From: an uncultured archaeon
GTDB lineage: Archaea > Iainarchaeota > Iainarchaeia > Iainarchaeales > 1-14-0-10-31-34
DNA: 64,000 nt
Assembly (NCBI GenBank): GCA_964608675.1
Contig: CAZSOZ010000001.1
Location: 221,272-285,271 of the forward strand
Direction of reading: 5' to 3'
The position numbers and the translations under genes were made by a program. Below, one piece after another: positions 283-12,867 of the stretch. Under the pieces are notes generated by a model. It made no database searches and was not told where the DNA came from. It worked only from the letters and a program-made list of their open reading frames with translations. How positions within the stretch are numbered: the stretch's first letter is position 1; each line of letters opens with the position of its first letter.

Positions 283-315
283 TATTATACATAACTTTTT
301 TTAGGAGGAAGTTAA

Positions 316-1136: not shown

Positions 1137-1787
1137 GTGAGTATTTTTTTCATGCCAAGAAGAAGAAGGCCAAAGCCCGCAGGCAAAAACATCAAAGTTG
1201 AACAAAAAAAACAAAAAGAAATAAAATCAATGTTAAAAAAACAAAAAGAAAAGAACAAAGATTATCTTTCAACTGTATTAAAAAAAACAATCCAGGGCTC
1301 AGAAAAAAAAGAAGGAAGAAATGCCGCAGCCCATTTAGGAGTAAAACCAAAAAGCAATGCTCCAAGAATAAAAAAATATCCAAAATTAACGCTGTTTAAA
1401 CCGGTTCGCCTGCCTTCAGGCAATTATGTGGTTTCATTAAAAGCTAATTTGAAGGCGGTGACTCCTGAAAAATTAACCGGAAAAAAAATTCATTTTCCAT
1501 GGGGAATTGTAAAAAAAAGTGTAAAACCAAAAAGAAAGAGCGTTGAATTATGGGAACAAAAAAACATTACTTTGCAGGTTGAATATAATCCAAATAAAAT
1601 GCCTTCAAGGAAAGGAAAAGGAAAAATTCATATTCAAATAGCCGGGGGATCATCCAAAGTAGGCTTAACAAAAAAAGACAAATGGCGTTTTATTGAATTA
1701 TTGAAAAGAATTCATAAAGGAGAAAAACCAAAACAAACAGAAACCTTCAAAGTAACACTTGCAAAAGCATATACTGAAGTTATATAA
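1137..1787 (+). CDS. Hypothetical highly basic Lys-rich protein; the true start is probably MPRRRRPKP at 1152.
   Basis: Long ORF with no recognisable catalytic motifs. It shares the N-terminal MPRRxxP motif with ORF 5946-6170. Confidence 0.35.
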   Translation: MSIFFMPRRRRPKPAGKNIKVEQKKQKEIKSMLKKQKEKNKDYLSTVLKKTIQGSEKKEGRNAAAHLGVKPKSNAPRIKKYPKLTLFKPVRLPSGNYVVSLKANLKAVTPEKLTGKKIHFPWGIVKKSVKPKRKSVELWEQKNITLQVEYNPNKMPSRKGKGKIHIQIAGGSSKVGLTKKDKWRFIELLKRIHKGEKPKQTETFKVTLAKAYTEVI

Positions 1788-1829
1788 TTCTAACACAGTG
1801 TTTTTTATTTCTAACTCAAGGGCGTGGAA

Positions 1830-1910
1830 ATGTATGAAGAAAATTTGATTCTGGCATTGCTTTTGTGGCTTTGGTTTTTAAGGTTTGTTGGAAAAGGAGG
1901 CGTTGAATGA
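1830..1910 (+). CDS. Possible 26-aa hydrophobic micropeptide (MYEENLILALLLWLWFLRFVGKGGVE); its stop overlaps the ATG of the downstream XRE gene (ATGA).
   Basis: Read directly from the sequence; no homology support. Confidence 0.15.
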   Translation: MYEENLILALLLWLWFLRFVGKGGVE

Positions 1911-2100
1911 AAAACAGAATCAAAGAATTTCGAGCAAAATACAATTTAACTTAGGAACAGCTGGCTAAAATAGTTAAAGTTCGAAGAGAAACTATTGTTT
2001 TTCTTGAACAAGGGAAATACAATCCTTTGCTTAAACTGGCTCACGATATAGCAAAAATTTTTAATGAGCCAATTGAAAAAATTTTTGAATTTGAAGAGTA
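1907..2100 (+). pseudogene. XRE/Cro-C1 family HTH regulator with an in-frame TAG at codon 16 (1952-1954).
   Basis: A good ribosome-binding site (aaaggagg, 1893-1900) precedes the ATG at 1907. The translation [63 protein letters not shown] matches small XRE proteins (..LTQEELA..VSRQTIS.IE.GK.NPSL.LA.KIAK.F...IEEIF). The TAG sits at the conserved Gln codon (CAG), and TAG is a real stop elsewhere, for example at 8027-8029 and 20292-20294. Confidence 0.6.
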
Positions 2101-3286
2101 AATTTTTAGGAGTTCATTTCTACAGTTTTCGCCAAATAGTTTTTTTTTCGTCTATTGTTTGGATTTTAGATGATTCTTCATAGTTTGAATGCTGTCTTCT
2201 GGTTTAATGTTTTTGTTTGATATTTTGATTGGACAGTCTTATTTATTTGAAAAACCAAGTTTTATACATAACTTAGAATCCTGTTCGTCTTATTCAATGG
2301 TTCTGTTGATTAAGCCTTCCAAAAGATTTATCTGAATCAGCATAAAAAGCATGAAAAAAAGGGGAAACCAAGAATTCCGCTGAATATCTTGTGTATTGGC
2401 TTGATTTTGGCTGAAAATAGCTTAAATATGGCTCATTTTTATTAGACATAACCCGTATAAGACACATTATACGTGTTTTCCTAGAGGGGACTTAATCAAA
2501 AAACGCGAAAAATCAGCTTTACTGGAAGCAAGGAGGGTACAGACAGGAAAATAAGCATCGGCAGATTAAGAGTTATGTATACAAATTGAGGCAAATTTAA
2601 TACAGCTCAAAAAACATTAGCAAAATAGCTTTTCAGATAAAAAACTTCTCAAAATTAAAAAATTTCATAAAAAATTTTTATAAAAAAAAATTAAAATAAA
2701 ATATTCTTTTCTTTTCACACAAATTCAAAAAAATCAGAAAACACAGGAAAAAAAAACAAAAAAAAGAAAAAAAGCTTTTTTGGGGCTTTTTAGTTAATTT
2801 AGTTCATACGAAGCAGACATTTTCTAAAGTTTTTTGCTTAATTCTTTAAATTCATAAAAAATATTGCTTTTTTTTAACCTTTTTTAATTTTTTTTTAGTT
2901 ATTTGGTTTAATTAAGCTTTTTTAGGCAGTCAAATGCGTTTTTGGCTTGTTTTTTGGTTCTTTTGCTTTCCAGCAGGTTTATAACCCCCAACAACAAATA
3001 ATTATGTATAATTTTGCTACATAACTATCGGGCTTTTGGGGTTTTTATTCTCTTTTCCGTGTTCTTTTCTGCTTTTTTTTTACTTATTTTGGGGTTTGAT
3101 ATTGATTTTGATTGTGGTTGAGGGTTGAATGTTGGAACACGCAAATGCGGGATATGGAGTATTTTCTTTTTGCAAGGAAAAAAATTTGGGGCTGTTCTAA
3201 TGGAAAATGCTAATGGATTCAAATAAAGGGTTTTTTTTAGTTAAATTAAAACAAGTTTATAAACAGTTATGTATATATTTATTTTT

Positions 3287-3877
3287 ATGTTTGAATTTTT
3301 TTTTCAAAAAATTAAATTATTTTTTTTAATTTTTATTTTATTTGGATTTATTGGTTCTATTTCTTATTCTAATGTTAATTCAAATGCTTTAGTCTGCGGT
3401 GATTCAACCGGAGACGGAAAAGTCAATATTGCTGATTTATCTTTTTTGATTAATTATATTTTTTATTCAGGTCCTGTTCCTGAACCTATTGGAATAGCAA
3501 ATGTTGATAACAGCGGGGAAGTTAATATTGCTGATGCTTTTTATTTATCCAATTATATTTTTTATTCTGGTCCTGCGCCTAATTGTCCGGTAATTCAGCC
3601 AATAATTGTTATTCCTGAAGAAGGCCAAACTTTAAGTTCTCCTGTTTATGTTGCTGTTGAAAATCAAGGCATTGCTGATTCTTCTGAAATTAATGCTGTT
3701 AAGCTTTATTATTCTCTTGATAATTCAGATTGGGTTTATTTGCAGACTGATACTTCTGCGTCTGAGAATTTGTGGGAGTTTTCTGTTGAGCTTGAACCTG
3801 GTTTTAAATATATTATGGTTATTATGGAGTCAACTGAAGCCAGAACTTCTCCTTCTGTCTTAATCGAAGTAATCTGA
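3287..3877 (+). CDS. Secreted protein with two dockerin-type Ca-binding repeats.
   Basis: A signal peptide (KIKLFFLIFILFGFIGSISYS) is followed by GDSTGDGKVNIADLSFLINYIF and NVDNSGEVNIADAFYLSNYIF, which match dockerin type I repeats. The ORF track starts at 3269; the ATG at 3287 is the more plausible start. Confidence 0.6.
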   Translation: MFEFFFQKIKLFFLIFILFGFIGSISYSNVNSNALVCGDSTGDGKVNIADLSFLINYIFYSGPVPEPIGIANVDNSGEVNIADAFYLSNYIFYSGPAPNCPVIQPIIVIPEEGQTLSSPVYVAVENQGIADSSEINAVKLYYSLDNSDWVYLQTDTSASENLWEFSVELEPGFKYIMVIMESTEARTSPSVLIEVI

Positions 3878-3879
3878 TT

Positions 3880-4512
3880 TTATTTTATTCTTTTTTTGTG
3901 AAAATCTTTAATGAATGAATTCATTACATTTTTTCTTATGTCTGTAAGGGTTTTTTCATTTGTTTCTTCCATATCTATCATTTTTCCTTTTCTTGTTTGA
4001 ATTATTATGTTTCCTCCATCGTGGGATATTGTAGAGAATTCAACCAGCAAATCAATTCCGTTGTATTTTATTCTTGTTAAATAAGTTTTTTCTGAATAAA
4101 TTCTTCTGCCTATTTTGCGTTTATAGGTTTCTATAAATTCTTGGCTTGGCTTGCTTAATTGTTTAATTTCGCCTACTGGGGGAATTATTTTTTCCGAATG
4201 TATGTTTCCTGTCCGGCTTGTTATTTTTAATCCTGTTTTTTTGAGTGTTTCTTCTTGTTTTTTTCTTTTTTTGTTTGCTTTTGATATTAGTGTTTGAATT
4301 TGTCTTAAGGGTTTTGGGGTATTTCTTAAATATTTTGGTTTTCTATTGATTTTTTTCATATAACTAATTTTGTTTTTTTTATTAATAAATTTTTGCGTTT
4401 TCTTTTTTTTTGTGCTTGTTTTTAATTTCTTTTGTTCTTCCTTTATTGCATGAATTATCTTGATACTGCGGTTCTCGCTGCAAAAAAAGCAGGAAAAATT
4501 ATTTCTTCTCAT
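3880..4512 (-). CDS. Hypothetical basic protein; the start is probably an internal Met near 4359, which avoids overlap with the IMPase gene.
   Basis: ORF only; Lys/Arg-rich; no motif recognised. Confidence 0.3.
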   Translation of the reverse strand: MRRNNFSCFFCSENRSIKIIHAIKEEQKKLKTSTKKKKTQKFINKKNKISYMKKINRKPKYLRNTPKPLRQIQTLISKANKKRKKQEETLKKTGLKITSRTGNIHSEKIIPPVGEIKQLSKPSQEFIETYKRKIGRRIYSEKTYLTRIKYNGIDLLVEFSTISHDGGNIIIQTRKGKMIDMEETNEKTLTDIRKNVMNSFIKDFHKKRIK

Positions 4513-7192: not shown

Positions 7193-8029
7193 ATGGCTTT
7201 CAAAAAAATTTCAATTGTTGTTTCAAAAACTGATCCAGCAGGCTTAAATATTGCAGAACACTTAATTAAAAAATTTGATTTCAAGCAAACAGAAAAACAA
7301 TTTAATTTTAATTCAGTTTATTTTTTTTCTTCAGAAAAAACGTTATTTGAATTGGTTTTCATTAACCAAAAACAGGTTTTTGCTGATTACTTGAATGAAT
7401 TAGATTCAGATTTAATTGTTTTTGCTTCCAAGCATTCAAGCAAAACAAAAAAACCTTGTTTAACTGTTCATTCAACAGGAAATTTTTCTAAAGCCGAATT
7501 AGGAGGAAAAACTAGAACTCTTTCTTTGGCATCTTCTTTTGTAATGAAAAATTTTTATTTAAATTTACTAAAAAAAGCCAAAAAAAGAAATTTTTTTCCG
7601 GTTTTTTTGGAGCAAACTCATCACGGTCCATTTCTTTTAAAACCTTCTGTGTTTATTGAAATTGGCAGTTCGGAGGAAGAATGGCAAAACCAAATTGCAG
7701 GAGAAATTTTGGCTGAAACAATAATAAATTCTTTTGAAAAATTTAATTCAAATTTTAGCACTGCTGTTGGAGTTGGAGGAACTCATTATTGTCCTGAATT
7801 CTCCAAAATAGAGGAAAGAACTCAGATTGCACTTTCTCACATTCTTTCAAAATATTATGTTGATGAAGTTGATTTGCGTTTGTTCAGGCAAATGCTGGAG
7901 AAAACCTTTGAAAAAGTTGATTTGGTTTTAATTGACTGGAAAGGTTTGACCAGCAGACAAAGAAACAAAATAATTTCTTTTTGCAAAGAACTCAGTCTTG
8001 ACTGGAAAAAAACAAGGGATTTTTTATAG
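7193..8029 (+). CDS. dtdA: D-aminoacyl-tRNA deacylase, archaeal type (DTD2).
   Basis: FASKHSSKTKKPCLTVHSTGNF, QTHHGP and FIEIGSSEEEW match Pyrococcus DTD2 (FASRHSSK..PALTTHVTGNW, ATHHGP, FFIEIGSSEEEW). About 278 aa, ending at a TAG stop. Confidence 0.85.
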   Translation: MAFKKISIVVSKTDPAGLNIAEHLIKKFDFKQTEKQFNFNSVYFFSSEKTLFELVFINQKQVFADYLNELDSDLIVFASKHSSKTKKPCLTVHSTGNFSKAELGGKTRTLSLASSFVMKNFYLNLLKKAKKRNFFPVFLEQTHHGPFLLKPSVFIEIGSSEEEWQNQIAGEILAETIINSFEKFNSNFSTAVGVGGTHYCPEFSKIEERTQIALSHILSKYYVDEVDLRLFRQMLEKTFEKVDLVLIDWKGLTSRQRNKIISFCKELSLDWKKTRDFL

Positions 8030-9826
8030 TCATTTTTTTTCCATCATTTTTTTTGCTTTTTTTGTTATGCTTTCTGCGTCCATTCCAAATCTTTTTTTGA
8101 TTTCTGCAGGAGCATCATAATCAATGTAGTCATCTGGAGCGCCAATTCTGTGCAGTTCAACATCTATTCCTTTTTCTTCAAGCATTTCTAATACTGCAGA
8201 ACCAAATCCGCCAGGCAATACATTTTCTTCTATTGTGATTGCTTTTCCTGTTTTTTTCAGACTCTCAATTAACATTTTTTCATCTAATGGTTTTGCAAAT
8301 CTTGCATTAATTACTTCTGCTGTAATTCCTTCTTTTTTTAGCAATGCTGCTGCTTCTTTTGTTTCTTTTAACATGAATCCAATACTTATTAATGAAATGT
8401 CTTTTCCTTCCTGAATTAATTCTGCTTTTCCTATTTCTAATGGTTTTGATTCTTTCATTTCAACTCCTATTGGAGTTCCTTTTGGGTACCTTACACTTAT
8501 TGGTCCTTTGTCGTATTTGTATGCTGTTAAAACCATGTCTCCTAATTCGTTTTCGTCTTTTGGAGCCATTACAACCATGTTTGGAATAATTCTTAAATAA
8601 CTTAAATCAAGTATTCCTCCTTGTGTTGGTCCGTCTCCTGTTATTGCAGATTTTGGAACCAAAAATTTTACTGGAAGATTCTGCAATGCTACATCATGAG
8701 CTATTTGGTCAAATCCTCTCTGTAAAAAAGGACTGTAAATTATTACAAAAGGTTTTACGCCTTCTGCTGCCAGTCCGGCTGCAAAAGTTACTGCGTGTTC
8801 TTCTGCTATTCCTACATCATAAAATCTTTCAGGGAATTTTTCTCCGAATTTAATTAGTCCTGTTCCTGCAGGCATTGCGGCTGTTATTGCAACTACTTTG
8901 TCGTCTTTTTCTGCTAATTTAATTACATCTTCTACTGCTGTTTTTTCAACTGAAACAGGTTTTTTTTTGGCAGGTTCTCCTGTTTCAATGTCGAATGCAG
9001 GGTGTTCGTGCCATCTTGCTTTGTCGTTTTCCATGTAAGGCATTCCTTTTCCTTTTATGGTTACTACGTGAAGCATTCTTGGCCCTGATAAATCTCTTAT
9101 TCTTTCTAATTCGCTTACTAGTTTTTCTACGTTGTGGCCGTCTATTGGTCCAAAATAATGTATTCCCATTTTTTCAAATATTGTTCCTACATCTCTTCTT
9201 GCTTTTTCTTCGTCTGCAAACATTGAAAGTTTTTTTAAGTGCTTGTACATTGCTCCTACATTTGGTGAAATGCTCATTTTGTTGTCATTTAAAATTATTA
9301 TCATGTCTGTTTGGTTGTATCCAATGTTGTTTAATGCTTCATAACACATTCCTCCTCCTAAAGCGCCGTCGCCTGTTATTGCAAGTACTTCGTATTCTTT
9401 TTTGTTTCTTTTTCTTGCTTCAGCTATTCCCATGGCTCCGCTTAAAGCAGTTGAAGCATGTCCTGCACTCCATATATCATAAGGTGTTTCTCCTCTGACA
9501 GTAAATCTTGGGATTCCTTTTGGAATGCAGATTGTGTGAAAGTATTTTCTTCTTCCTGTTAAAATTTTGTGGGTATAACTTTGATGGCTTGTATCAAACA
9601 AAATTTTGTCTTCAGGGCAATTGAATACGTAATGCAAGGCAACAGTTAATTCCACTACTCCTAAGTTTGCTCCAATATGTCCTCCGTTTATTGAACAAGT
9701 GTGAAGCAAAACTTCTCTTATTTCTTTTGATAATTCATTTAACTGTTCTACTTTTAATTTTTTTAAGTCTTCAGGACTGTCAATTTTTTCAAGTAATTTT
9801 GTTTTTGGAATATTGTTTTCTGCCAA
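8030..9826 (-). CDS. dxs: 1-deoxy-D-xylulose-5-phosphate synthase.
   Basis: GGHIGANLGVVELTVALHYVF...DTSHQSYTHKILTGRR; thiamine diphosphate motif GDGALGGGMCYEALNNIG; 598 aa. Confidence 0.9.
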   Translation of the reverse strand: MAENNIPKTKLLEKIDSPEDLKKLKVEQLNELSKEIREVLLHTCSINGGHIGANLGVVELTVALHYVFNCPEDKILFDTSHQSYTHKILTGRRKYFHTICIPKGIPRFTVRGETPYDIWSAGHASTALSGAMGIAEARKRNKKEYEVLAITGDGALGGGMCYEALNNIGYNQTDMIIILNDNKMSISPNVGAMYKHLKKLSMFADEEKARRDVGTIFEKMGIHYFGPIDGHNVEKLVSELERIRDLSGPRMLHVVTIKGKGMPYMENDKARWHEHPAFDIETGEPAKKKPVSVEKTAVEDVIKLAEKDDKVVAITAAMPAGTGLIKFGEKFPERFYDVGIAEEHAVTFAAGLAAEGVKPFVIIYSPFLQRGFDQIAHDVALQNLPVKFLVPKSAITGDGPTQGGILDLSYLRIIPNMVVMAPKDENELGDMVLTAYKYDKGPISVRYPKGTPIGVEMKESKPLEIGKAELIQEGKDISLISIGFMLKETKEAAALLKKEGITAEVINARFAKPLDEKMLIESLKKTGKAITIEENVLPGGFGSAVLEMLEEKGIDVELHRIGAPDDYIDYDAPAEIKKRFGMDAESITKKAKKMMEKK

Positions 9827-9926
9827 TAAAACACCTCTTTTTTTTTGCTTTTAATCTAACAATAATCTAGCTCAAAGTATTTAAAGCTTACGTTAATTTA
9901 AAAACCATATTTCGTCAAAAAGCGAA

Positions 9927-10448
9927 TTATTTCTTTTTCTTTTCTGTTATTTTTTTTATGTCTTTATGGATTGCGGTTACTACTGAAAAAACTTGTATTC
10001 CTTCTCCTCTTCCAAAAGGAGTAAGTTTTTCTCCTGTGGTTGCAATTATTCCTACTTGGTCTGGTTCTATTTTTAGTATTTCTGCTACTTTTTCTTTTAT
10101 TTCATCTGAAATTGGGTCGATTTTTGGTTTTTTGCATTCGATTGTTATTCCAACAGTAGTAATAACATAATTCATTTCTTTTAGTTTTTTTAATGGTTCT
10201 TTTAAGTATTCTTTTGAATCAGTTATTCCTTCTTCTTTGCATAATTTGTCTGCATGATTTCCTAGGCTTTTCCAGCCGATTATTTGTGCAATTGAATTAA
10301 ATAAAGAATGAAGTATTACGTCTGCATCTGAATTTCCTTTAAGGCCTCTTTCTCCTTTGATTTCTACTCCGCCTAAATACAGTTTTCTTTTTTCATGTAC
10401 ATGAGAAAACCTATGCGAATCTTGTCCTAATCCTACTTTGAAAGGCAT
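9927..10448 (-). CDS. ispF: 2-C-methyl-D-erythritol 2,4-cyclodiphosphate synthase.
   Basis: VGLGQDSHRF...GGVEI...GLKGNSDADVILHSL. Confidence 0.8.
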   Translation of the reverse strand: MPFKVGLGQDSHRFSHVHEKRKLYLGGVEIKGERGLKGNSDADVILHSLFNSIAQIIGWKSLGNHADKLCKEEGITDSKEYLKEPLKKLKEMNYVITTVGITIECKKPKIDPISDEIKEKVAEILKIEPDQVGIIATTGEKLTPFGRGEGIQVFSVVTAIHKDIKKITEKKKK

Positions 10449-10491
10449 AATATCCCGCTAAATTATGTATAAAACATTTTTTATACGCTTC

Positions 10492-11190
10492 TTAATTCTG
10501 TTCCTCTTTTTCTATTATTTTTTCTGCTAATTCCAGGTCTTCTTTTGTTGTAATTTTTATGTTGTCGTATGAACATTCAACAATTTTTATTTTTCCGTGA
10601 ATTCTTTCAACTAATTGCACGTCGTCTGTTCCGTAAAATCCATCTTTGTGTGCTTTTTCAAATGCTTTTACTGCAATATGAAAAATTATTGCCTGAGGGG
10701 TTTGCATTTGCCATAATTCTTTTCTTTTTAGGGTTTCTTTTACAAGCAAATCTTCATTAACTCTTTTGATTGTGTCTTTAACTCTTTGTGCTGCAACGCT
10801 TGCCCCAAATTTTTTTGCTTCTTGTATGCATTCTTTTATTGTTTTTTCTTTTACAAAAGGGTTAGCTGCATTATGAATTAATACAACATCTTCTTCTTTT
10901 GCTATTTCTTTTAGTTTTTTTATTCCGTTCCAGACAGAATCCTGCCTTTTTTCCCCGCCTTCCACAACAGCAATAATTTTTTTGAATTTTTCTCTTTCAG
11001 TTATTTTTTTTATTTCAGCAAAATCTTCTTTTGCAGCAGAAATAATTATTCCTTTAATTTTTTCTGTTTTATCAAATACTTTAATTGTTCTTGCAATTAT
11101 TTCCCTGCCTTTTATTTTGATGAAGACCTTGTTTTTTTCGTGCCCCATCCTGATTCCTTTTCCGCCTGCGCATACAACAACATAATTCAT
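10492..11190 (-). CDS. ispD: 2-C-methyl-D-erythritol 4-phosphate cytidylyltransferase.
   Basis: VVVCAGGKGIRMG N-terminal nucleotidyltransferase motif, at the size of IspD. Confidence 0.8.
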   Translation of the reverse strand: MNYVVVCAGGKGIRMGHEKNKVFIKIKGREIIARTIKVFDKTEKIKGIIISAAKEDFAEIKKITEREKFKKIIAVVEGGEKRQDSVWNGIKKLKEIAKEEDVVLIHNAANPFVKEKTIKECIQEAKKFGASVAAQRVKDTIKRVNEDLLVKETLKRKELWQMQTPQAIIFHIAVKAFEKAHKDGFYGTDDVQLVERIHGKIKIVECSYDNIKITTKEDLELAEKIIEKEEQN

Positions 11191-11251
11191 TTTTTTTTCC
11201 CTCTTTTATTATTGCCTCTTCAAAGTATTAAATTTTTTGTTTTTTTTTGGT

Positions 11252-11689
11252 TTATAGTTTTTTGTGGCTTGAAAACTTTTTTGGCGTTTTTTCAAATGAA
11301 ATTATTTTGTGTGAAAAAATCCTTGCTTTTTCCAGAATTTTTCCTGTTTTAGTTTTTCCAATTTTTGCGCTTGTTTTGAATTTTTTTGACATTCTGTTGA
11401 ATTTTAAATTTAATTTTTGGTTTCCTTTAATATAAATTATTACTTTACTTCTGATTGACATTAAAATTGCTTTTGTTACCGGTTTTTTGTTTTTCTTTTT
11501 GATTTTTTTTGCAGCTAGTTTGGCTATTGCAGTAATTATATTTGTTTTGGTTATTTCTTCTGCACTGAGGTTTTTGAATTCTTTTGGGGGGCTGGCATTA
11601 ACTAAATTGAGCATTCCTTTTCTTTTGAAACCGAATTTGTTGAAATATTCATGCACGCTTTCTTTTATGATTTGTTCTGTTTTGTCCAT
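11252..11689 (-). CDS. Hypothetical Lys-rich protein embedded in the MEP operon.
   Basis: ORF only. Confidence 0.3.
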   Translation of the reverse strand: MDKTEQIIKESVHEYFNKFGFKRKGMLNLVNASPPKEFKNLSAEEITKTNIITAIAKLAAKKIKKKNKKPVTKAILMSIRSKVIIYIKGNQKLNLKFNRMSKKFKTSAKIGKTKTGKILEKARIFSHKIISFEKTPKKFSSHKKL

Positions 11690-11706
11690 TTTTTTTCCTG
11701 ATTTTT

Positions 11707-12867
11707 TTATTCTTCTTCAATTATTTTTCTTGTTTTTTCTCTTGCTTTTTTGTCTGCTTCCAATACGGTTTCAATTGAATCAGCTTTTTTGTTTTTGTGT
11801 TCGTCGATTACTTTTTTGATGATTTCAGGGATTTTTCCGTAAACAATTTTTTTGTCTAAAAAAGCATATACAGCAATCTCATTTGCTGCATTCATTGCTG
11901 AAGGAAGTGTTCCTCCTTTTTTTCCTGCTTCAAAAGCGTATTTTAAGCAGGGAAAATTTTCATAATCAGGGGCTTCAAAAGTAAGTTGTTTTGCTTTAAT
12001 TAAATCAAGTTTTGGAAAGTTATTTGGAATTCTTTTTGGGTAGCTTAAAGCATATTGGATTGGCATGCGCATATCGTGTGTTCCAATTTGCGCCATAATG
12101 CTTCCGTCTACAAACTCTATCATTGAATGAATTAAACTTTGAGGATGTACTATTACTTCTATTTCTTCAAAATTTAAATCATATAACCATTTTGCTTCTA
12201 TTACTTCTAAGCCTTTATTCATTAATGTTGAGGAATCAATTGTTATTTTTGCTCCCATGCTCCAGGTTGGATGTCCTAAAGCTTGTTCTGGAGTAGAATT
12301 ATAGAATTCTTTTCTTTTTTTTCCTTTGAACGGCCCGCCAGAACAGGTAATAAGCACTCTGTTTACTTTGTTTCTTTCTTCTCCGTTTAAACATTGAAAT
12401 AAAGCTGAATGCTCTGAATCAATAGGCATCAAAGTAATGCCTTTTTCTTTTACTGCTTTCATTATTGGCTGGCCTCCGGCAACCAAAGTTTCTTTGTTTG
12501 CTAAAGCAATGTTTTTTCCTTTTTTGATTGCTTTCATTGTAGGTTGCATTCCAATTGAGCCTACAACTGCTATGATTGTTTGTTCAACTTCCTGCATTAC
12601 TGCAATTTCTTTCAGTCCTTTCATTCCTGAAACAATTTCGACTTCTTTTCCAATTTTTTTTTCTAATTCTTCTGCTGAGTTTTCTTCAAATAAACAGGCT
12701 TTTTCTGGCTTAAATTCTTTTATTTGTTCAATCATTTTTTCTACTTCGTTGAATGCAGCCAACCCAATTATTTTGAATTCTTTTTGATGGTTTTTAACTA
12801 CATCCAAAGTCTGGGTGCCAATGCTTCCTGTTGAACCCAAAATACTTATTTTCTTCATTTTAATCAT
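11707..12867 (-). CDS. dxr: 1-deoxy-D-xylulose-5-phosphate reductoisomerase.
   Basis: ISILGSTGSIGTQTLDV NADPH-binding motif, LANKE, CSGGPF; 386 aa. Confidence 0.85.
   Translation of the reverse strand: MIKMKKISILGSTGSIGTQTLDVVKNHQKEFKIIGLAAFNEVEKMIEQIKEFKPEKACLFEENSAEELEKKIGKEVEIVSGMKGLKEIAVMQEVEQTIIAVVGSIGMQPTMKAIKKGKNIALANKETLVAGGQPIMKAVKEKGITLMPIDSEHSALFQCLNGEERNKVNRVLITCSGGPFKGKKRKEFYNSTPEQALGHPTWSMGAKITIDSSTLMNKGLEVIEAKWLYDLNFEEIEVIVHPQSLIHSMIEFVDGSIMAQIGTHDMRMPIQYALSYPKRIPNNFPKLDLIKAKQLTFEAPDYENFPCLKYAFEAGKKGGTLPSAMNAANEIAVYAFLDKKIVYGKIPEIIKKVIDEHKNKKADSIETVLEADKKAREKTRKIIEEE

Follow-up and report, generated by a model that had tools for sequence, protein, structure and literature searches.

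The XRE-family gene at positions 1907-2101 (plus strand) of the window, by which we mean the whole 64,000-nucleotide stretch of DNA analysed here, is probably a recently inactivated CylR2-like repressor gene that lies within a decaying two-gene module of a DPANN archaeon. Its 64-codon frame is interrupted by an in-frame TAG at codon 16 (1952-1954, plus strand) and carries an unusual Leu at codon 41. Upstream, a 26-codon micro-ORF takes the place of the membrane protein gene that several relatives keep, and downstream a fragment is left of a convergent neighbour. Taken together, the nonsense codon, the Ser41 to Leu replacement, the partner relic and the neighbour fragment suggest to us that the locus is a two-gene regulatory module in the course of being lost. 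The process is one of ordinary gene decay, with no change of the genetic code.

The XRE gene has a GGAGG ribosome-binding site at 1896-1900 (plus strand), as read directly from the sequence, an ATG at 1907-1909 and a TAA stop at 2099-2101, and its frame contains no frameshift; the ribosome-binding site and start codon, both described as good in the original prediction, are thus confirmed. When codon 16 is taken as Gln, the product matches Pfam HTH_3 (PF01381) with 45.3 bits against a cut-off of 23, residues 5-58 being aligned to profile positions 1-54 of 55, and it also matches HTH_19, in good agreement with the Cro/C1 helix-turn-helix that had been recognized in the translation. The assignment to this family also draws on the orthologues and the CylR2 match discussed below. 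An uninterrupted helix-turn-helix ORF is absent, the TAG breaking the frame at codon 16, and the next in-frame start past it is the TTG of codon 41, from which the product would be 24 aa long.

A scan of species-representative genomes gave 80 loci, and the comparison with relatives was based on 87 loci in all. One member of the set, L003, represents the locus of the window itself in another assembly, which leaves 86 others. Position 16 is Gln in all 86 and a stop in the window; the amber codon therefore does fall at a conserved Gln, as claimed beforehand, and the comparison with orthologues that had been suggested as a check found no relative with a stop at this codon. Position 41 is likewise Ser in 86 of 86 loci and Leu in the window (TTG, 2027-2029, plus strand), which the alignment of relatives marks as a second lesion. 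The 82 distinct sequences in the set share 23 columns with a conservation of at least 97%. At these columns 72 sequences never deviate, nine deviate once, mostly by a conservative change, and the window copy alone deviates twice, once by a stop and once by a radical replacement. The original prediction had described the TAG as a single C to T change. This is correct relative to CAG, the codon in one of the six closest relatives, and fails relative to CAA, the codon in the other five. At codon 41, L090 has TCG, from which a single C to T change is sufficient to give the TTG of the window.

A search of a large protein collection returned thousands of XRE relatives of 62-66 aa, the closest of them, from archaeal MAGs, being 85-92% identical; with intact orthologues the window XRE protein shares 92-95% amino-acid identity. 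The dN/dS of the window gene against its relatives is 0.03-0.09, with dS above 1 and synonymous sites saturated. These low values point to strong constraint through nearly all of the history of the gene, such that the inactivation would be recent on that scale, that is, recent relative to the split from the nearest sequenced relatives.

Immediately upstream lies the 26-codon micro-ORF MYEENLILALLLWLWFLRFVGKGGVE (1830-1910, plus strand), whose TGA (1908-1910) overlaps the XRE ATG as ATGA, exactly the arrangement of a 26-aa hydrophobic ORF and start codon that had been noted at the outset. In L001, L002, L004, L006 and L091, this position is occupied by a partner gene that encodes a multi-pass membrane protein of 112-143 aa and ends at or overlaps the XRE start, and an ORF of at least 80 aa ends at the XRE start in 64 of the 87 loci. 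The partner of L004 matches DUF3796 with 33.2 bits (cut-off 24.8), and weak DUF2178 matches are on record for the partners of L004 and L091. An intact multi-pass partner gene directly upstream of the XRE gene is absent from the window, where only the 26-codon relic is found, and the micro-ORF is unique to this genome; relatives have either the 112-143 aa membrane protein at that place or nothing. As a separate observation, the XRE gene of L091 is preceded by a tandem of two distinct partner genes (2321-3163), one of the L006/L001 type with an EDELS..KAGYY motif (97 aa) and one of the L004 type with an SDERIE motif (108 aa), the DUF3796 match being that of the L004 partner itself; two such unlike partners indicate that at least two partner types exist.

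We read the micro-ORF as an in-frame deletion relic of the partner gene, from which about 113 codons would have been lost, and not as a toxin. It retains the promoter of the partner gene, and its start coincides with the position of the partner ATG after the second operator-like site (O2, below) in L004 and L006, and the start contexts may be compared directly (TTCTAACtcaagggcgtggaaATG in the window, TTCTAACttgaaggaggtttggatATG in L006). The C-terminal ends that follow the hydrophobic helix are similar as well, with KGGVE* in the micro-ORF, KGNVE* in the L006 partner and KGNVQ* in the L001 partner. When anchored at the stop, the last 22 aa of the micro-ORF score 19 (L006) and 20 (L001) with BLOSUM62 against these partners, with 7 of 22 residues identical, and only 15 (L006) and 4 (L001) of 20000 composition-preserving shuffles reach these scores. 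When the ORFs in all six frames of the window were searched with a profile HMM of 46 heterogeneous partner proteins, the micro-ORF was missed; its local DNA alignment with partner genes was weak, the score being reached by 43 of 1000 and 165 of 1000 shuffles; and it has no Pfam match. Given that neither the HMM nor the DNA alignment detects it, the relic reading draws on position, on the start and end contexts and on the anchored C-terminal comparison. Loss of the partner does not by itself predict loss of the regulator, as shown by L005 and L090, in which the partner is wholly lost and the XRE gene is intact.

Upstream of the partner-XRE operon, tandem GTTA-N8-TAAC sites of 16 bp each are found, usually in two copies. 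In the window these are O1, GTTATATAATTCTAAC (1779-1794), with two mismatches to the consensus GTTAGAAATACATAAC, and O2, GTTTTTTATTTCTAAC (1800-1815), which lies 21 bp from O1 and is degenerate relative to GTTATGTATTTCTAAC in L006; O1 probably overlaps the promoter. Both sites align with sites in L001, L004, L005, L006, L090 and L091, and they are the sole matches with three or fewer mismatches in the 64-kb window. Across the set, the density of such sites is 2.14 per kb in the 700 nt that precede the XRE gene and 0.052 per kb elsewhere, a 41-fold enrichment, and 63 of 81 non-redundant loci have them. A few of these 81 loci supplied the consensus, which makes the enrichment test partly circular, and the remaining loci are still strongly enriched. 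The element is common to archaea (Methanoregula, Methanoperedens, DPANN) and bacteria (Bacteroidales, Dehalococcoidia, Patescibacteria). From the conservation of the operator-like sites upstream of this operon type, we infer that the repressor negatively autoregulates through these candidate operators.

The shorter motif GTTATRTAW, which corresponds to one half of the XRE operator consensus, occurs seven times in the window where 1.1 occurrences are expected. Five of these fall in both orientations within the first 3.3 kb, at 287-295 (minus), 1779-1787 (plus), 2264-2272 (minus), 2572-2580 (plus) and 3266-3274 (plus); the region 3001-3026 also belongs to this group, and an inverted pair is seen at 2256-2280 and 2564-2588. 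None of the other GTTATGTAT sites in the window has the full operator consensus, which is limited to 1779-1815. These GTTATRTAW copies could be a local promoter type, additional XRE half-sites or origin boxes.

The surroundings of the XRE gene are syntenic with those of relatives and show a further lesion. The gene order PEBP ... XRE ... inositol monophosphatase, DUF7090 and tRNA deacylase is common to the window and L001, L005, L006 and L007, and these syntenic relatives are DPANN MAGs labelled archaeon, Micrarchaeota or Iainarchaeum. In L004, a convergent gene encodes a 606-aa protein with a weak Peptidase_C25 match, and a pseudogene fragment of this neighbour is present in the window at 2117-2242 (minus strand), as found with blastn and tblastn. 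With blastn, the fragment is 78% identical to the L004 gene over 116 nt (E 2e-20); with tblastn, residues 465-482 of the 606-aa protein align at 78% identity with the peptide DCPIKISNKNIKPEDSIQ, which is followed by stops and a frame change. When the region 2100-3270 was compared with the neighbours in L001, L004, L005 and L006, no gene relic other than this fragment was found.

The following picture would account for these observations. The intact module would consist of a single promoter with two tandem 16-bp GTTA-N8-TAAC operators that drives the gene for a small multi-pass membrane protein (DUF2178/DUF3796-like) and, directly behind it and translationally coupled to it, the gene for the 64-aa CylR2-like XRE repressor. 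By binding the operators, the repressor presumably shuts down its own operon, and the membrane partner would modulate the repressor, as is thought for CylR1/CylR2. In the window, the membrane gene would have been cut to 26 codons by an in-frame deletion, and a CAG to TAG nonsense change at codon 16 would end the repressor before helices 2 to 5; a product that has lost these helices could not bind DNA. The repressor gene in addition has Ser41 to Leu, and of the convergent downstream gene a fragment of about 125 nt is left. Set against complete decay is the observation that, apart from its two lesions, the XRE frame is intact, as are the ribosome-binding site, the ATGA coupling and both operators, which leaves room for an allele that is leaky or still functional.

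Three options for the stop codon had been offered in the original prediction, namely a recent nonsense pseudogene, a sequencing error and readthrough, and the first is the best fitting, given S41L, the truncated partner and the fragmentary downstream neighbour. It appears improbable that the TAG is an artefact of sequencing or consensus building, or that it is a minority allele in a population that really carries CAG or CAA. It is true that a single sample (SRR7048224) was found for this organism: our search for a second one yielded only L006-like contigs in a metagenome pattern scan and only SRR7048224_23898 in exact-protein look-ups. Over 4343 bp, that Logan contig, assembled from run SRR7048224 and listed in our set as L003, shows 100% identity with the window, and it has both the TAG and the Leu41 codon (positions 1952 and 2028). 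The Logan assembly was built independently, possibly from the same reads as the window, and its TAG argues against an assembler error; moreover, substitution errors seldom persist in a consensus, and the unusual S41L and the surrounding decay fit a real mutation. The exact placement of the TAG at a Gln conserved in every relative could also suggest that TAG is translated as Gln throughout the genome or within a mobile element, as happens in some phages and ciliates (code 15-like), an explanation to which we give hardly any weight. With a G+C content of 30%, the window is 92% coding when read with the standard code, and its 53 long ORFs end on TAA (27), TGA (22) and TAG (4). The ChaB gene (864-1088) terminates on TAG exactly at the end of its Pfam domain, and the TAG-terminated tRNA deacylase gene (7193-8029) encodes 278 aa versus 279 aa for the orthologue in L001. 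This coding density under the standard code and the termination on TAG at expected ends indicate that the genome is not recoded and that TAG is a normal terminator, as had been stated from the outset. A further point against recoding is that no other interrupted gene was seen in the window. A tRNA scan of its 64 kb gave no tRNA genes of any kind.

The module had also been likened to a small-toxin/XRE-antitoxin pair or a phage-like module, in which the micro-ORF would be a small hydrophobic toxin and the XRE protein its type II antitoxin. The overlap of a small hydrophobic ORF with a helix-turn-helix gene and weak XRE matches to antitoxin models such as Y4mF/HipB speak for this idea, but these matches are far below their cut-offs, the best (TIGR03070) reaching 35.7 bits against 71.65, and they reflect the generic helix-turn-helix fold. 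Relatives carry a multi-pass membrane protein of 112-143 aa at this place and no micro-ORF, the micro-ORF of this genome matches the partner C-terminus, and no phage genes are nearby; we therefore set the toxin reading aside as very improbable and take the micro-ORF as a remnant of the partner. A gene that still works through leaky UAG readthrough, with near-cognate decoding most plausibly by tRNA-Gln giving a low level of the ancestral protein, we regard as unlikely. UAG readthrough often inserts Gln. The remaining ORF, the ribosome-binding site, the upstream coupling and both operators are preserved, dN/dS is low, and the RNA immediately 3' of the TAG has a moderately stable fold (z = -2.15), all of which would suit such a gene; negative autoregulation would raise transcription until the repressor suffices. 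In the more specific form of this argument, which we consider quite improbable, the amber codon is tolerated because low-level near-cognate readthrough inserting Gln regenerates a repressor of its own promoter, and the circuit compensates by more transcription. If so, the gene would be a nonsense-attenuated yet working regulator in a DPANN archaeon, and the 26-codon relic would be kept only to bring ribosomes to the XRE start by translational coupling. However, the stop is absent from all 86 relatives and hence is no programmed event that has been conserved; S41L suggests relaxed constraint; the downstream hairpin sits in the most conserved coding segment and lacks a known readthrough motif; and TAG acts as a true terminator in the window. 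A recent nonsense pseudogene in a decaying module is the reading that we retain.

Among characterized systems, the closest is the CylR1/CylR2 pair of the Enterococcus faecalis cytolysin operon. The XRE protein of the window matches CylR2 (1UTX) over its full length (residues 3-63 aligned to 4-64, E 1.1e-10), and the two have the Gln and an NPSL motif in common; CylR2 itself is a single-domain XRE helix-turn-helix protein of 66 aa. On the cytolysin plasmid, the cylR1 gene (94 aa, three predicted membrane helices) lies directly upstream of cylR2 and abuts it, as the partner genes do in the relatives of the window. According to a review, the cytolysin promoter is repressed by CylR2, and its induction requires CylR1, a putative membrane protein, through an unknown mechanism (PMC3709268). 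The likeness of the upstream proteins is far less clear: CylR1 has no Pfam family, for CylR1 and the archaeal partners hmmsearch (Z=1) gives E 0.0012 with 5 bits and a high bias of 12.7, hhalign assigns a probability of 1.4%, and the features common to both are limited to a (K/E)DER motif and a YYN(K/R)K-like C-terminus. The window also differs from CylR1/CylR2 in having no lantibiotic genes, in its candidate operator, which is a tandem GTTA-N8-TAAC at the module's own promoter, and in that its copy is broken. The best match to a solved structure is PDB 9K3W ("Transcriptional regulator, PbsX family", 65 aa; E 4.6e-13, residues 2-63 to 3-64), which resembles the window protein in size and shares its TQ..LA and GKY(D/N)PSL motifs; we found no paper on 9K3W in the library that was searched.

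Pairs of a DUF2178- or DUF3796-type membrane protein and a small XRE protein are widespread in archaea and bacteria and uncharacterized, and the loci of the relatives are such pairs; the window differs from them in that its partner is cut to 26 codons and its regulator has a nonsense codon. With a point nonsense change in an otherwise intact ORF and deletions in neighbouring genes, it resembles the ordinary nonsense pseudogenes of reduced or drifting prokaryotic genomes, from which it shows no essential difference. The window locus may be viewed as an intermediate stage, with both genes still intact in L006, L001 and L004 and the partner already gone in L005 and L090. The broken gene itself is of little importance beyond capturing one moment in the loss of a gene from a small archaeal genome. 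Possibly more useful is a by-product of the analysis, a highly conserved small XRE regulator with a membrane partner and a recognizable tandem operator in both archaea and bacteria, for which GTTA-N8-TAAC provides a concrete, testable DNA target in a widespread, uncharacterized CylR1/CylR2-like signalling pair.

The XRE gene sits in the largest gap of the window that is free of ORFs of at least 70 aa, 1788-3268 (1481 nt), the next largest being 347 nt; the roughly 1.2 kb of ORF-free DNA reported beside the gene is thereby borne out. Within it lies a conserved non-coding block, block A (2448-2614), with 72-79% identity to syntenic positions in L006 (6930-7078), L005 (5610-5776) and L001 (6929-7001); four genus-level relatives have it at this syntenic position. 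In block A there are a hairpin or palindrome of the form CGTATAA-N6-TTATACG, ATAGAGGGGACTT, and, much like an archaeal ORB box, TTTAGTGGAAG with a G-run behind it. We treat it as context, its membership in the module being putative. Block A has no Rfam match and no conserved ORF, and consensus RNA folding on both strands was weak, with no convincing covariation. Rfam searches gave chance-level matches only, both at gathering thresholds for the window and four relatives and at permissive settings for 2050-3300. The idea that the ORF-free DNA is a replication origin found little to build on: each locus has just one ORB-like TTTAGTGGAAG..GGGG box, and a scan of ten ORFs between 13 and 15622 revealed no orc1/cdc6 gene. 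In the window, L006 and L005 alike, block A is followed at a distance of about 400 nt by a conserved palindrome, AACCCCC..ATTATGTA-N9-TACATAAC..GGGGTT (2983-3043; L006 7498-7538, L005 6176-6207). The spacer between block A and this palindrome is AT-rich, variable in sequence and similar in length, with a palindromic AAAAAAGCTTTTTT at about 2765-2780 in the window.

Several neighbouring genes may be mentioned as well. Two lysine-rich ORFs match no family, one at 1137-1787 (216 aa) and one at 3880-4512 (minus strand, 210 aa). L001 and L006 lack the former at the syntenic position; in the window it ends within the promoter region of the module, at a place where a TTAAATA box is seen in relatives. 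A gene for a dockerin-domain protein (3269-3877) is conserved in L006; its listed ATG at 3269 falls inside a GTTATGTAT motif, and translation probably begins instead at the ATG at 3287. Farther along, an MEP/DOXP isoprenoid cluster occupies 8030-12867 on the minus strand, with Dxs (8030-9826), IspF (9927-10448), IspD (10492-11190) and Dxr (11707-12867), all of them strong Pfam matches. The MEP pathway has been described as almost absent from archaea (PMC11052028), and the presence of these genes in a genome whose closest relatives are labelled DPANN may thus reflect bacterial gene transfer or a binning issue.
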